From a virus (lineage: Duplodnaviria; Heunggongvirae; Uroviricota; Caudoviricetes), in the IMG/VR virus record IMGVR_UViG_2526164632_000020: a DNA stretch of 13,180 nt. One strand, 5' to 3'. The translations under genes were made by a program, and so were the position numbers. Positions 452 through 8,210 of the stretch are shown one piece after another. How positions within the stretch are numbered: the first letter of the stretch is position 1; each line of letters opens with the position of its first letter. The notes below the pieces were generated by a model. It did not search any database and had not been told where the DNA came from. It saw nothing but the letters and a program-made list of their open reading frames with translations.

Positions 452-3025
452 TTACTGGACGGCAACAATCCGGTCTTCATTAACTTCCAGGCGAATCACT
501 TTACCCGGAACCAATTCACCAGACAGTATTTGCTGTGCCAGCGGGTTTTCGATCTGCTGCTGGATAGCACGTTTCAAAGGACGTGCACCATAGACTGGAT
601 CGTAACCGTTCTCGCTCAGCAGTTTCAGCGCCTCGTCAGAAATGTGGATTTCATAACCACGTTCTTCCAGACGTTTGTACAGACGTTTCAACTGAATCTG
701 CGCAATCGAGGCAATGTGCTGTTCACCCAGCGGATGGAAGACCACCACTTCATCAATACGGTTAATGAATTCCGGACGGAAGTTATGGCTTACCACACCG
801 AGCACCAGCTCTTTCATGTGCGCATAATCCAGTTCACCGAAGCGTTCCTGAATCAAATCGGAACCGAGGTTAGAGGTCATAATGACAACCGTATTACGGA
901 AGTCGACCGTTCTCCCCTGCCCGTCAGTCAGACGACCATCATCCAGTACCTGCAACAGAATGTTGAAGACATCCGGATGCGCTTTTTCCACTTCATCCAG
1001 CAGGATGACGGAATACGGACGACGACGCACAGCTTCGGTCAGGTAGCCACCTTCTTCATAACCGACATATCCCGGAGGCGCACCAACCAGACGAGACACC
1101 GAGTGTTTCTCCATAAACTCGGACATATCGATACGGACCATCGCCTCGTCGCTATCAAACATAAAGTTCGCCAGCGCCTTACAAAGCTCAGTTTTCCCCA
1201 CACCCGTTGGGCCGAGGAACAGGAATGAACCAATCGGGCGATTTGGATCCGCCAACCCCGCACGGCTACGGCGAATAGCGTTAGATACCGCATCAACCGC
1301 TTCGTTCTGACCAATGACGCGATGGTGCAGTTCTTGCTCCATACGCAGCAGTTTTTCGCGCTCGCTTTCCATCATGCGAGAAACCGGAATCCCCGTCCAA
1401 CGCGCCAGCACTTCAGCAATTTCGGCGTCGGTCACTTTATTACGCAACAGACGCATAGTTTTGCCTTCGAGCTGCGTTGCGGCTTCCAGTTGCTTTTCCA
1501 GTTCCGGGATTTTGCCGTATTGCAGTTCAGACATCCGCGCCAGGTCCCCCACACGGCGAGCCTGTTCAATAGCGATTTTCGCCTGTTCCAGTTCCGCTTT
1601 AATGGTCTGCGTACCAGAAAGCGATGCCTTCTCTGCTTTCCACTCTTCTTCTAACTCGGAGTACTGACGTTCTTTGTCGCTCAGTTCTTCGTTGAGCATA
1701 TCCAGGCGTTTTTTACTGGCTTCATCAGACTCTTTCATTAACGCCTGTTGTTCCAGTTTGAGCTGGATGATACGACGATCGAGTCGGTCGAGTTCTTCTG
1801 GTTTTGAGTCAATCTGCATACGAATGCTGGATGCTGCTTCATCGATCAGGTCGATGGCTTTATCCGGCAGCTGACGGTCAGCAATGTAGCGATGAGACAA
1901 CGTCGCCGCTGCAACAATTGCCGGGTCAGTAATTTGCACATGGTGGTGCAATTCGTAACGTTCTTTCAGGCCACGCAGAATCGCAATGGTATCTTCAACA
2001 GAAGGCTCGGCAACAAACACTTTCTGGAAACGACGTTCCAGCGCAGCATCTTTTTCGATGTACTGGCGATATTCGTCAAGCGTCGTGGCACCTACGCAGT
2101 GCAATTCACCACGCGCCAGCGCCGGTTTCAGCATGTTTCCGGCGTCCATTGCGCCATCGGCTTTACCCGCGCCGACCATGGTATGTAATTCGTCGATAAA
2201 CAGGATGACGTTGCCTTCCTGTTTGGCAAGATCGTTAAGCACGCCTTTTAAACGTTCTTCAAACTCACCGCGATATTTCGCCCCAGCCACCAGCGCGCCC
2301 ATATCCAGCGCCAGTACGCGGCGGCCTTTCAATCCTTCCGGCACTTCGCCGTTGATAATACGCTGCGCCAGACCTTCAACGATGGCAGTTTTACCGACGC
2401 CGGGTTCACCAATCAGTACCGGGTTATTTTTAGTACGACGTTGCAGCACCTGAATGGTACGGCGAATTTCTTCATCACGACCAATCACCGGATCGAGTTT
2501 GCCCTGTTCGGCTCGTTCGGTAAGGTCGATGGTATATTTTTTCAAAGCCTGACGTTGGTCTTCAGCACCTTGATCGTTCACGCTTTCACCTCCACGCATT
2601 TGTTCAATCGCTTGAGTAATGTTGGCGGTGGTCGCCCCTGCTGCTTTCAGGATGTCGGCCAGCGTGCCGCGAGACTCAAGTGCCGCCAGAACGAACAGTT
2701 CTGACGAGATAAAGTTATCACCACGTTTTTGCGCCAGCTTGTCGCAAAGATTAAGAACGCGCACCAGATCCTGTGATGGCTGGACATCACCACCAGTACC
2801 TTCAACCTGCGGTAAACGATTTAATGCCTGATTGATATCTGTGCGCAACTGGCCAGCATTTATGCCAGCGGATGTTAATAAAGGACTAACCGAACCCCCT
2901 TCCTGATTCAGCAGGGCGCTCATTAAATGAAGTGGTTCGATAAATTGGTTGTCGTGCCCGAGTGCAAGTGATTGGGCATCGGCAAGAGCAAGCTGGAATT
3001 TATTAGTAAGACGATCCAGACGCAT
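452..3025 (-). CDS. clpB: ClpB disaggregase (Hsp100, AAA+ chaperone), 857 aa
   Basis: ORF with two Walker A motifs ([16 protein letters not shown]) and a coiled-coil middle domain; starts [11 protein letters not shown] at ATG 3025 with SD GGGAGGAG upstream. The ORF-track start at 3037 is an upstream in-frame extension. Confidence 0.97.
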
Positions 3026-3057
3026 AACTCCTCCCATAACGGATCAAAGTTGCTACT

Positions 3058-3095
3058 GGAGATTAAATGAGGTCATCCCTCAATTATTCAAGGTT
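3058..3095 (-). promoter_or_regulatory. sigma-32 heat-shock promoter of clpB
   Basis: Minus strand CTTGAA (plus 3087-3092), 14-nt spacer, CCTCATTTA (plus 3062-3070); close to the sigma-32 consensus CTTGAA-N13-15-CCCCATnT. Confidence 0.6.
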
Positions 3096-3154
3096 ATTGA
3101 CCAGATTAATGTGAAAAGAAAATCACGCGTACCGGATCGTCTTGATTCTTTAGG

Positions 3155-6393: not shown

Positions 6394-6470
6394 GTAAAGC
6401 TAACAAATTGTTTCTATTAGCTTATTTCTTATAAACATCCACAAACTGTCCACATCAGTAATGATATACA

Positions 6471-6491
6471 AGCCCGCAAAAAATGCGGGCT
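6471..6491 (-). terminator. Hairpin 5 nt downstream of the methyltransferase stop (probable terminator between convergent raiA and prophage genes)
   Basis: Stem AGCCCGCA / TGCGGGCT with A5/T5 loop; on the minus strand followed by TGTATATCATT (weak U tract). Confidence 0.45.
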
Positions 6492-6496
6492 TTGTC

Positions 6497-7303
6497 TTAT
6501 GTAGCCGAAATGGTTGTGGTAATAGTCCCCCGAAGCCGCTGCGCTGCTACCTCAAAATAATGATCACTGGTTTCTATACCAATAAATTTTCGCCCTGCTT
6601 TCAGTGCAGCCACACCCGTTGTCCCTGACCCCATAAAAGGATCAAGGACTGTTCCGCCACTATTCACAGTCCTGACCAGTTCCGCCATTAGTTCTTCTGG
6701 TTTTCCGGTCGGGTGCATTTTCTTTGACGGGATAACCGGGTACGTCATGCAACCGTCGAACGGCCCCGAAGGCGATTTATCTAAATGGCCTTTGCTGCCC
6801 CAGACGATGTATTCGCACTGATGCCTGAAATACCCCGTATGGGGTGTTCGTGACCCCCTCCCCTTGTTCCACGCAATGATGCCGCGCCATGTAAAGCCGC
6901 TGGCCTGAAACGCATCGGTTAAAGCTGGTAGTTGTCGCCAGTCAGTAAATACCAGGGCATAACCGCCCGGCCTGACTGCGCGGTGTGCCTGTGCCATCCA
7001 TAATTGTGTCCAGTAAGCCCACGAACGGGCGTCCATGTTTTCACCCGCGAACCCATCAAAGCGGTGAAGGTTCTCGCCGTTCAGATATTTTGCATGGCTG
7101 CCTTGGTTGGTGCGTCCGGCCTTGTGTGTCGCACCCGAACTGTAAGGCGGGTCAGTGATTAAGGCATCAATGCTTTCTGGCTCAATCAGCGGCAATATTT
7201 CCAGCGCATTCCCACGACAGAGCGTGGCATTGTCAGTCTGATAAACCTTAGTGTGTTCCGGTGTATGTGCTGGTTGGTGCTGGATTGCGATCCCCACGGT
7301 CAT
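6497..7303 (-). CDS. Prophage DNA methyltransferase, beta-class N6-adenine/N4-cytosine family (DPPY motif IV before FxGSGTT motif I)
   Basis: 268-aa ORF with DPPY (catalytic motif) near the N-terminus and DPFMGSGTTGVAA (AdoMet motif) near the C-terminus. Start ATG 7303 lies only 2 nt after SD AGGAG; in-frame GTG 7297 has better spacing. Target specificity unknown. Confidence 0.85.
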   Translation of the reverse strand: MTVGIAIQHQPAHTPEHTKVYQTDNATLCRGNALEILPLIEPESIDALITDPPYSSGATHKAGRTNQGSHAKYLNGENLHRFDGFAGENMDARSWAYWTQLWMAQAHRAVRPGGYALVFTDWRQLPALTDAFQASGFTWRGIIAWNKGRGSRTPHTGYFRHQCEYIVWGSKGHLDKSPSGPFDGCMTYPVIPSKKMHPTGKPEELMAELVRTVNSGGTVLDPFMGSGTTGVAALKAGRKFIGIETSDHYFEVAAQRLRGTITTTISAT

Positions 7304-7445
7304 AACTCCTCATGTGTGTGGGGTGCTCGATGGCTCTCGTTATCTGGTTAAGTGTTTTGCAGCGCGGACATTTTATTTCAATGTAGTGAAATGAGGCGCG
7401 GGCAAGTAGTTTGTTGCAATTTTTGCATCGTACATTTTGCGTCAT
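7248..7445 (-). CDS. com: Com-like zinc-finger translational regulator (Mu Com family)
   Basis: 65-aa ORF MTQNVRCKNCNKLLARASFHYIEIKCPRCK...EHPT, matching the recalled Mu Com pattern (RCKNCNKLL...IEIRCPRCK...EHPT). SD AAGAGGTG 7 nt upstream of ATG 7445; 3' end overlaps the methyltransferase start by 56 nt. Confidence 0.75.
   Translation of the reverse strand: MTQNVRCKNCNKLLARASFHYIEIKCPRCKTLNQITRAIEHPTHMRSYDRGDRNPAPTSTYTGTH
7292..7323 (-). promoter_or_regulatory. mRNA stem-loop sequestering the methyltransferase SD and start codon (mom-like translation inhibition structure)
   Basis: On the minus-strand transcript CCCCAC (plus 7318-7323) pairs with GTGGGG (plus 7292-7297); the 20-nt loop holds SD AGGAG and ATG 7303, and the alternative GTG start is in the 3' arm. 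Confidence 0.45.
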
Positions 7446-7489
7446 TTGCGGCACCTCTTGTGTGGTTACTGCTGCCGATATGATAACAA

Positions 7490-7527
7490 ATCGATCGTTT
7501 TTATCGATCGGATTTATTGCATCGATC
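7490..7527 (-). promoter_or_regulatory. Cluster of three ATCGATC(G) repeats (three GATC Dam sites) upstream of the com promoter region
   Basis: ATCGATCG at 7490-7497 and 7503-7510, ATCGATC at 7521-7527, lying 45-82 nt upstream of the com ATG; resembles the Dam/OxyR-controlled region upstream of the Mu mom promoter. Confidence 0.4.
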
Positions 7528-7574
7528 TGTTATGCCTATTACTTATGAGTGGTGTTACCCTCATTTGTGAGGGT

Positions 7575-7612
7575 GACAAAAAGAAAACCCGCAGTTTTTA
7601 CGCTGCGGGTTT
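7575..7612 (-). terminator. Rho-independent terminator of the zinc-ribbon/TM2 gene
   Basis: Stem AAACCCGCAG / CTGCGGGTTT with 8-nt loop; on the minus strand followed by TCTTTTTGTC; 26 nt past the stop at 7638. Confidence 0.65.
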
Positions 7613-7637
7613 GTCATTCTGATTCGCCCACTAGGCA

Positions 7638-7934
7638 TTAGCCATATTTGCGGGCAAAGTCTTCATCAGAGGTGCATAGATAGATAAAAAACTCAATAAA
7701 TGCCACGATTGCCGGAATGAATGTCCAGCAAAAAATAAGGTAAAGGAATCCTTGCCCCACTTTACCTAAATAAAATTTGTGTGCACCAAGACCACCTAAA
7801 AAGAAAGCCAGTAGTGCGGCTGTCATTCTGCTTTTTGAACTTGCTGTTCTTTGAGGTGCTCCACAATTGGGGCAGGATGTGGCATCTTTATGTATTTCCT
7901 TGCCGCATCCGCGACAAAATACCATTTCACTCAT
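7638..7934 (-). CDS. Small membrane protein with N-terminal zinc-ribbon (CxxC...CxxC) and TM2-like domain; prophage cargo of unknown function
   Basis: 98-aa ORF MSEMVFCRGCGKEIHKDATSCPNCGAPQ followed by two hydrophobic helices with a TM2-type motif (LGGLGAHKFYLGKVGQG); SD-like AAAGGAA upstream. Confidence 0.7.
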   Translation of the reverse strand: MSEMVFCRGCGKEIHKDATSCPNCGAPQRTASSKSRMTAALLAFFLGGLGAHKFYLGKVGQGFLYLIFCWTFIPAIVAFIEFFIYLCTSDEDFARKYG

Positions 7935-8069
7935 AAAGAGTTCCTTTCAAATTTAAATAAGCGTTAAACCCACCACTCTTACTGGTGGGCCTCAATTTAA
8001 ATTTGGGTGCCACTTCGACCATACCCTGGCAACCGATTGACGGGGGATTGCTCCCCCGTCGCGGTTTCC

Positions 8070-8210
8070 TTACTGCTTACACTGTAAGAACGCCGCAAAC
8101 TCCGCTCCCCAGAAGCTCATCCGTATTTCGCACAGCGAACCATGCAGCATCCAGATGATGAGGATTGCCGTCACGCAGAACGTGATGGCCGTAAGCGATT
8201 TTTGCGACAT
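8070..8210 (-). CDS. hok: Hok/Gef-family type I toxin (46 aa), below the ORF-track length cut-off
   Basis: Hand translation of the minus strand from ATG 8210: MSQKSLTAITFCVTAILIIWMLHGSLCEIRMSFWGAEFAAFLQCKQ*. Single TM helix followed by the Hok signature SLCEIR...AAFL.C; SD AAGGAG 8 nt upstream. Confidence 0.6.
   Translation of the reverse strand: MSQKSLTAITFCVTAILIIWMLHGSLCEIRMSFWGAEFAAFLQCKQ

Follow-up and report, generated by a model that had tools for sequence, protein, structure and literature searches.

Control of a DNA modification gene by the Com protein was worked out in phage Mu. The RNA target of Com was defined by systematic evolution of ligands by exponential enrichment (SELEX), gel shift, and selective 2′-hydroxyl acylation analyzed by primer extension (SHAPE), the SELEX being done with Com of H. 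sputorum (Nowacka et al., PMC6483171). The resulting motif consists of CC(N)2-3GAG in a hairpin loop and a bipartite GAG(N)2CC, and the Com site adjoins a translation-inhibition structure, the stem of which holds the GUG of mom (PMC6483171). In other cassettes an adenine methyltransferase gene replaces mom next to com, as in B3 ORF47/48, FluMu HI1522.1/HI1523, Pnm1 nma1821, and comHia/hia5 of H. influenzae biotype aegyptius, and regulation by Com was proposed for these methyltransferases (PMC3299994). The enzymes Hia5 and Hin1523 were aligned with Dam and M1.DpnII and are nearly non-specific (PMC3299994). Here we describe a com gene followed by a beta-class DNA methyltransferase gene on the minus strand of a 13,180-nt stretch of DNA (the window; IMG/VR record IMGVR_UViG_2526164632_000020, Caudoviricetes), which is 100% identical to the chromosome of Escherichia coli strain FDAARGOS_1059. 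The comparison with Mu makes it likely that a regulatory module of the Mu mom type is joined here to a beta-class methyltransferase, and that together they form a self-contained anti-restriction cargo cassette in which translation of the enzyme would depend on Com. The relatives used for this comparison were 80 Com loci taken from one genome per species, 80 loci from viral contigs, and several E. coli and Salmonella variants.

The com gene and its methyltransferase partner

The com gene occupies positions 7248–7444 on the minus strand and encodes 65 amino acids plus a stop codon, preceded by the Shine–Dalgarno (SD) sequence GAGGTG at 7456–7451; the program-made list of open reading frames (ORFs) extends it to a GTG at 7454. 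The peptide translated from 7444–7248, MTQNVRCKNCNKLLARASFHYIEIKCPRCKTLNQITRAIEHPT..., contains a CxxC...CxxC zinc ribbon. A preliminary description of this DNA had called the zinc-finger ORF a Com homologue and had set a Com family profile search beforehand as the check on which this assignment could fall, and the zinc finger passed it. The protein matched Pfam PF10122 (Zn_ribbon_Com) with 44.6 bits against a cut-off of 22.9, and PHROG 13819, "gpCom control of modification", with an E value of 2e-17. A stretch of 42 residues, which covers the zinc ribbon and the following AxEHPT segment, shares 60% identity with Mu Com, and all four zinc-ligand cysteines are present (Cys7, Cys10, Cys26, and Cys29; family pattern CxxC-(15–16 residues)-CxxC). 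A PDB sequence search with Com returned only weak, non-significant zinc-ribbon (eS27) matches. The codons for the disordered tail of the protein extend across the regulatory RNA and the first 50–56 nt of the methyltransferase gene. Based on these similarities, the window Com is predicted to be an RNA-binding translational activator. In RefSeq the gene is named "Com family DNA-binding transcriptional regulator" (7196–7393 of locus L001), which is misleading, because the published experiments show an RNA-binding translational activator.

The adjoining methyltransferase gene (6497–7297, minus strand) belongs to the PF01555 family. Its ORF, taken as 7303–6497, matched PF01555 with 116 bits and also matched PHROG 67, while the PF02086 profile (D12, alpha-class Dam-like) gave no match in it. 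The DPPY motif at residues 51–54 and FMGSGT at about residues 222–227, near the C terminus, follow the beta-class motif order, and the closest solved structures in a PDB search were those of the DpnA/HpyAVI type and CcrM. The enzyme is probably of the N6-adenine type.

The data on the start of this gene agree in part with the preliminary description. It stated that the Com homologue overlaps the first 56 nt of a beta-class DPPY methyltransferase, which is correct when the overlap is counted from ATG 7303, the RefSeq start (268 aa), to the com stop at 7248; counted from GTG 7297 (266 aa) the overlap is 50 nt. It also rightly placed the GTG in the stem and the ATG in the loop of a predicted hairpin, but its choice of the ATG as the main start was not upheld. 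The SD core GGAG ends at 7306, so that ATG 7303 follows it after 2 nt and GTG 7297 after 8 nt, compared with a spacing of 7 nt in Mu. The loop ATG was present in only 16 of the 49 distinct variants (85 loci), all of them of the window subclade, and was lost in L088 and L114. Additionally, ATG 7303 takes part in the inner helix of the predicted fold. The SD spacing, the conservation in relatives, and the pairing and rarity of the loop ATG suggest that the methyltransferase most likely starts at GTG 7297, as does Mu mom.

The cargo distinguishes the window from the systems described previously. In Mu it is Mom, an acetamido-adenine enzyme (PF25680) of a transposable phage, whereas the window carries a beta-class, S-adenosylmethionine-dependent methyltransferase in a P2-like prophage. 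The cassettes of B3, FluMu, Pnm1, and Hia5 resemble it in that com is located directly upstream of a methyltransferase gene in the place of mom, with Com-type hairpins upstream, but their enzymes are D12/alpha-class and Dam-like (B3 ORF48 matches PF02086) and belong to Mu-like phages, unlike the PF01555 enzyme in its P2-like setting. Hence, where the preliminary description saw a mom-style switch on a different enzyme, the cargo does differ from Mom, but the idea itself had already been published for these four cassettes (PMC3299994). M.EcoGII and M.EcoGI are, like the window enzyme, orphan beta-class methyltransferases with DPPY...FxGxG on E. coli prophages, but they have 349 aa as compared with 266–268 aa. 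M.EcoGII, a non-specific, prophage-borne beta-class adenine methyltransferase of E. coli, is silent in lysogens and harmful when expressed (PMC5778455), which shows why gating could matter; the paper on M.EcoGII makes no mention of Com. An identity of the window enzyme with M.EcoGII or M.EcoGI is unsupported and the likeness is limited to the shared class, while M.EcoGIX was ruled out because it is plasmid-borne and single-strand-specific (PMC7736820). A limited literature search found no description of Com together with a beta-class or C5 enzyme, or of Com in P2-like or lambdoid prophages, and the methylome papers on ST131 and O111 contained nothing on the window cassette, Com, or a P2-like context.

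The start-burying hairpin and the predicted Com site

The Mu com–mom region reads GAAUGCCUGCGAGCAUCCCAC-GGAGAAACAUU-GUGGGAAAAG, with the annotated GUG start of mom inside GUGGG and the annotated ribosome-binding site GGAG in the loop. The window counterpart reads GAGAGCCAUCGAGCACCCCAC-ACACAUGAGGAGUUAUGACC-GUGGGGAUCG, and it aligns with Mu along the entire regulatory segment. In Mu, AUGC-CUGCGA-GCAU is followed by UCCCAC-GGAGAAACAUU-GUGGGA, and in the window (7338–7292) GAGC-CAUCGA-GCAC is followed by CCCCAC-(...GAGGAG...)-GUGGGG. The two regions have in common the order of elements, the CCCAC/GUGGG stem, the GUG in its 3′ arm, the GGAG in its loop, the overlap with com, and three upstream GATC sites at spacings of 18 and 13 nt. 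They differ in that the window stem is one G-C pair stronger and its loop has 20 nt as compared with 11 nt in Mu.

The translation-inhibition structure of the window (7292–7323, minus strand) has the stem CCCCAC (7323–7318)/GUGGGG (7297–7292). A fold of this kind around a loop holding the SD sequence and the ATG, with the GTG in the stem, had been proposed in the preliminary description, and the data bear it out. The inverted repeat 7292–7297/7318–7323 is exact, with 6 bp and 20 nt between the arms, and the minimum-free-energy fold of the RNA includes the stem. The loop (7317–7298) contains the SD sequence GAGGAG (7311–7306) and ATG 7303, while GUG 7297 is located in the 3′ arm. In the predicted fold an inner 5-bp helix (7314–7310/7305–7301) pairs the ATG and leaves GGAG (7309–7306) in a tetraloop. 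The fold energy was −17.5 kcal/mol (z = −2.33; 4 of 200 shuffles were as stable), and the unpaired probability of GUG 7297–7295 was 0.00. The energy of the hairpin alone was −13.2 kcal/mol, compared with −8.7 kcal/mol for the hairpin of Mu.

The stem is well kept among relatives. In 13 cassettes 92% of the stem cells were paired, three of the seven stem pairs never varied, and covariation was seen at both stem ends. The pair flanking the CCCAC/GUGGG core was always pairable, being C-G in 38, U-A in 10, and U-G in 1 of the 49 distinct variants (9:3:1 in the 13 cassettes), and the loop-side pair beyond the core was A-U, G-U, or G-C in 20 of the 49. Among close relatives the stem bases were invariant and the loop bases varied. 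This compensatory change appears to give moderate support to the stem, from few independent events. In L090 a 2-nt shift alters the Com segment EHPTH to EPHAH, yet the 7-bp stem CCCCACG/CGUGGGG is kept, which points to selection at the RNA level and not at the protein level.

Immediately 5′ of the inhibitory hairpin lies the predicted Com binding site (7322–7338, minus strand), GAG-AG-CC-AUC-GAG-CA-CC or GAGAGCCAUCGAGCACC, in which 7338–7322 is a complete match to the published Com motif in the same position as in Mu. The stem of the Com-site hairpin is formed by 7336–7333 and 7326–7323 (GAGC/GCAC), with an A·A mismatch, the closing pair C7333–G7326, and the loop CAUCGA. Nucleotide C7323 is used doubly, as the last base of the Com-hairpin stem and the first base of the inhibitory stem, which is also the case in Mu.

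Of 65 non-redundant loci, 58 had the Com hairpin in the 130 nt that follow the part of com encoding the zinc ribbon, where its density was 9.1/kb versus 0.40/kb elsewhere, a 22-fold enrichment on the sense strand. A CC-N2-4-GAG sequence had all three flanking positions complementary in 66 of 98 cases in this region versus 57 of 969 outside it (Fisher p 3e-46). The 18 different stems included AUGC/GCAU, GCAC/GUGC, ACGC/GCGU, AGGC/GCCU, GAGC/GCUC, AUAC/GUAU, and UUGC/GCAA, and these sequences point to clear, family-wide covariation of the Com-binding hairpin, with the window clade slightly deviant through its mid-stem mismatch (GAGC/GCAC). Covariation was assessed by a direct count of flanking complementarity against background, since MAFFT gapped the 5′ ends of the 13–14-nt hairpins and misaligned their stems. 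A search of Rfam showed no family that covers the RNA element, with only sub-threshold chance matches in 7150–7650.

Relatives, putative upstream control and genomic setting

To describe which genes Com accompanies, 66 genes located directly downstream of com (that of the window and those of 65 genome loci) were compared. A DNA-modification domain was present in 52 of them, with 37 D12, 8 PF01555 (N6_N4), 4 Mom, and 3 C5 genes. Hence, Com is chiefly a partner of DNA methyltransferases, and Mom is a minority. In most cassettes com overlaps the downstream start, by 8–152 nt. In all 15 enterobacterial cassettes the stem was kept, the GUG of its 3′ arm was in frame with a long ORF, and the SD core was 7–10 nt upstream; the ORFs behind this stem encode Mom (216–245 aa where complete), beta-class methyltransferases (261–268 aa), or a C5 methyltransferase (350 aa). 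The hairpin and the motif, both homologous to those of Mu, are conserved across differing cargo genes. Two E. coli lambdoid prophages, one with Mom (L084, 2501–3392) and the other with a C5 enzyme (L091, 2488–3694), have the same neighbors, DUF6645, DUF1378, and DUF826. Counted from the com ATG, their identity is 97–100% between −270 and about +165, and beyond it they are unrelated. The identity breaks just 3′ of the GUGGGG stem, which indicates that the cargo was swapped behind the hairpin while the switch was kept.

In some lineages the two RNA structures compete for the same nucleotides. In a Pseudoalteromonas locus with beta-class cargo (L046) a 7-bp stem that ends at the AUG uses as its 5′ arm the nucleotides forming the 3′ arm of the Com hairpin, and in a Vreelandella locus (L050) the SD sequence and the GUG are paired with the complete Com site in a 9 + 4 bp helix (z = −4.83). 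The Com hairpin and the start-burying helix are mutually exclusive in L050, L063, and L073 of Vreelandella and in L046, L053, and L056 of Pseudoalteromonas. As modeled, these lineages would fit the expectation for a protein-driven structural switch, in an architecture clearer than that of Mu or the window. Among the other relatives, Methylophaga thiooxydans DMS010 carries at least 12 near-identical loci with com and a D12 methyltransferase gene (L014, L021, and L027–L036) on separate scaffolds, many at scaffold ends, which may reflect a transposable Mu-like phage in multiple copies or phage DNA that was replicating at the time of sequencing. The com–methyltransferase cassette of L004, a 226-kb contig titled Vagococcus sp. 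WN89Y with a Firmicute label, is 88–92% identical in its proteins to that of E. coli/Salmonella; the label likely reflects assembly contamination or mislabelling.

The DNA upstream of com contains a cluster of three GATC (Dam) sites (7490–7535, minus strand; 7527–7524, 7509–7506, and 7496–7493), which is a putative OxyR/Dam control site. The cluster lies inside the inverted repeat ATAACAgATCGAT/ATCGATtTGTTAT, and its start-to-start spacings of 18 and 13 nt are the same as upstream of Mu Pmom, the region aligning with Mu. Among 62 distinct enterobacterial com upstream segments, 58 had at least two GATC per 160 nt (background 0.55), with spacings of 18 and/or 13 nt. The cluster was lost in L004, L089, and L090 by deletion between ATCGAT repeats. 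A sigma-70 promoter-like site (7480–7507, minus strand), with TCGATA-16 nt-TATCAT and TG before the −10 element, was identified by consensus match alone, as the only match in 6400–8000; its −35 element overlaps GATC II and its spacer contains GATC III.

Control of Mu mom by Dam and OxyR is cited in passages of PMC2909390 and PMC10742451. A similar arrangement is found at the Dam/OxyR phase-variation switch of agn43 (flu) of E. coli K-12, where three GATC sites spaced by 19 and 13 nt lie within ...ATAG...CGATC.A...CGATCG.T...CGATCGAT..., which aligns with the window including the upstream ATAG, although agn43 controls an autotransporter and is without a Com layer. The distance from the last GATC to the com ATG is 51 nt in the window and 80 nt in Mu, so that in the window the cluster overlaps the promoter-like site instead of preceding a C-activated promoter. 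The segment with the C-dependent late promoter of Mu has no aligned counterpart in the window (a 25-nt gap between the GATC cluster and com), and no Ogr-type late promoter (TGT-N12-ACA) was found upstream of com in a by-eye look with no formal test. Because the promoter-like site overlaps the Mu/agn43-like GATC sites, control of the window promoter by OxyR and Dam is plausible, while phase variation of the cassette similar to that of agn43 would be a speculation. Going further, the Dam/OxyR site, com, the Com site, and the hairpin could be a portable "safety-catch" module that recombination has repeatedly joined to DNA-modifying enzymes of four or more unrelated families (Mom, C5 methyltransferases, and amino-methyltransferases of the alpha and beta classes) in Mu-like, lambdoid, and P2-like phages. 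In the P2-type version, where the agn43-like GATC/OxyR site lies on the promoter itself, the prophage methyltransferase could then be expressed in lysogens in a phase-variable, Dam/OxyR-dependent manner. This suggestion is doubtful at present, one junction, just after the hairpin, being demonstrated; if true, the module would be an epigenetic switch over an epigenetic writer, which is more than a late lytic function.

The position of the cassette is given by the RefSeq gene order in strain FDAARGOS_1059: P2-type tail genes, gpD, ogr, hok/gef, a TM2-domain gene, the "Com family" protein, the DNA methyltransferase, and beyond it raiA, bamD, rluD, yfiH, and clpB. This places the cassette in the right-end cargo region of a P2-like E. 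coli prophage, on the ogr-proximal side and next to the attachment site. A megablast search against 5426 complete E. coli genomes showed the 1.24-kb com–methyltransferase segment, covered to at least 80% of its length, in 171 of them. A 94% identical segment is present in the free P2-like phage Chuche, where it is annotated as "gpCom control of modification" and "DNA methyltransferase". A rho-independent terminator (7612–7585) lies upstream of the promoter-like site; with a promoter-like site of its own and this terminator upstream, the cassette looks like a separate transcription unit. Directly after the methyltransferase stop codon, a GC-rich, bidirectional terminator-like stem-loop with A/T runs on both sides (6470–6492, minus strand) marks the cassette end near the prophage/chromosome junction, with raiA next; the program listed it on the plus strand, but it is palindromic and has T-runs on both flanks.

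The last 6–11 residues of the methyltransferase (window 6497–6535) differ between prophages at different chromosomal sites, while the rest is 64–96% identical, and in phage Chuche an integrase gene follows the methyltransferase gene. Thus, the attachment-site core may be located at or inside the 3′ end of the methyltransferase gene. Between hok and com, the TM2 gene (7638–7934, minus strand) is a 98-aa ORF with an N-terminal zinc ribbon and a TM2 domain (PF05154); the gene has a terminator of its own (7612–7585) and is absent from phage Chuche, L088, and L090. The hok/gef family toxin gene (8070–8210, minus strand; annotation of L001), between ogr and the TM2 gene, makes up a second small module of cargo in this variable part of the prophage. 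A match to the RyfD (Ysr155) small RNA in Rfam (125 bits; 3006–3144, minus strand), upstream of clpB, is ordinary chromosomal content.

Proposed mechanism, alternative explanations and meaning

The proposed mechanism begins with a single transcript that would carry both com and the methyltransferase gene. Transcription would start from the sigma-70-like promoter under the three-GATC site, which would probably add a Dam/OxyR layer of control. In this transcript the SD sequence and GUG 7297 would be locked in the −13 kcal/mol hairpin, so that ribosomes could not initiate. The Com protein, translated off the same mRNA, would bind the CC-AUC-GAG hairpin that abuts the inhibitory 5′ arm through the shared C7323, and the bound Com would open or remodel the inhibitory stem and thereby allow initiation. 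Synthesis of the enzyme would then require an abundant transcript, and with it abundant Com; since the activator and its target are on one transcript, little enzyme should result from transcription at a low level or by read-through. The mom-style, Com-dependent gate put forward in the preliminary description is thus supported by homology, that is, by the Com profile, the motif 5′ of the hairpin, and the base-for-base alignment with the Mu hairpin; the tight gating and the possible toxicity that it also suggested would be conjectural. It is from such similarities that we infer Com binding to the window RNA, translational activation, use of the promoter, OxyR/Dam control, and the activity and target of the enzyme.

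Several observations limit the support for this mechanism or weigh against it. There are 20 inverted repeats of at least 6 nt in 441 nt, and a lone 6-bp repeat is unremarkable; the significance of the hairpin comes from its homology to the Mu structure and its conservation in relatives, not from fold statistics. The CCCAC/GUGGG core is invariant and its bases are coding in two frames, so that most stem pairs give no covariation evidence. The window Com hairpin, with its internal A·A mismatch, has two contiguous pairs plus one, and thermodynamic folding alone misses it. Com hairpins across the family are, however, marginally stable (−0.5 to −3.3 kcal/mol), and the hairpin of H. sputorum, the species whose Com was used for SELEX, is no more stable than that of the window (+0.6 kcal/mol). 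When pairing of the Com site was banned in silico, the inhibitory stem stayed closed in the window and in Mu alike, and such modeling of Com action is uninformative about the mechanism; for Mu itself, Com is stated to open the structure "by the unknown mode" (PMC6483171). Finally, the com frame runs through the hairpin, and therefore ribosomes translating com could open it without any contact between Com and the RNA.

The last point leads to an explanation by translational coupling in cis, in which ribosomes on the com tail (7323–7292 to the stop at 7248) would melt the hairpin, the methyltransferase would use a coupled or re-initiating start, and RNA binding by Com would be dispensable. This would agree with the overlap between com and the downstream start in most cassettes (50–56 nt in the window) and with the weakening of the window Com hairpin by the mismatch. 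On the other hand, Mu Com was reported as a translational activator that binds the mom mRNA hairpin beside the inhibitory structure (PMC6483171; PMC3299994), and the full Com motif is conserved in the window. Moreover, com genes of the Haemophilus type stop 10–56 nt before the downstream start and the Com hairpin is still there, and the RNA motif is conserved whereas the tail of Com shows little conservation of either sequence or length. We therefore consider coupling with dispensable Com binding unlikely. However, coupling and activation by Com are not exclusive, and coupling may well contribute.

The mismatch in the Com hairpin could also mean that the module is a relic, acquired by recombination from a Mu-like or lambdoid prophage, which no longer regulates, with the methyltransferase being permanently silent or starting independently, for example at ATG 7303. 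The in-frame loop ATG acquired by the window subclade and the deletion of the GATC cluster in L004, L089, and L090 would fit such decay. However, every variant seen has an intact com gene that encodes all zinc ligands, and the cassette is identical or near-identical in the 171 of 5426 complete E. coli genomes and also present in the free phage Chuche. The invariance of stem bases amid varying loop bases in close relatives also speaks against a relic, as does the ATG, which follows the SD core after only 2 nt and is base-paired in the predicted fold; this explanation is very unlikely. That Com is instead a DNA-binding transcriptional regulator of the cassette, with the hairpin being incidental, has the RefSeq label as its sole support. 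In published experiments Com was described as binding RNA specifically and activating translation (PMC6483171), there is a 22-fold enrichment of the RNA motif on the sense strand downstream of the zinc-ribbon coding part, and no repeated DNA operator resembling the RNA motif was seen upstream of the promoter; a role of this kind is extremely improbable.

The understanding of the mechanism itself, worked out in Mu, is unchanged by these data; new are the beta-class cargo, the P2-like setting, and the merging of a promoter-like site with a Mu/agn43-like GATC site. Together, the Com hairpin and the start-burying helix form a cis-regulatory RNA that is widespread, shows clear covariation as far as the sequences indicate, and lacks an Rfam family, and the compact module (a 65-aa protein and an RNA of about 45 nt) is a candidate part for synthetic translational control. 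For E. coli, the comparison assigns a regulatory logic to a methyltransferase cassette of about 3% of complete genomes (171/5426). A translational lock on a transcribed gene would explain prophage methyltransferases that are invisible in methylome studies.

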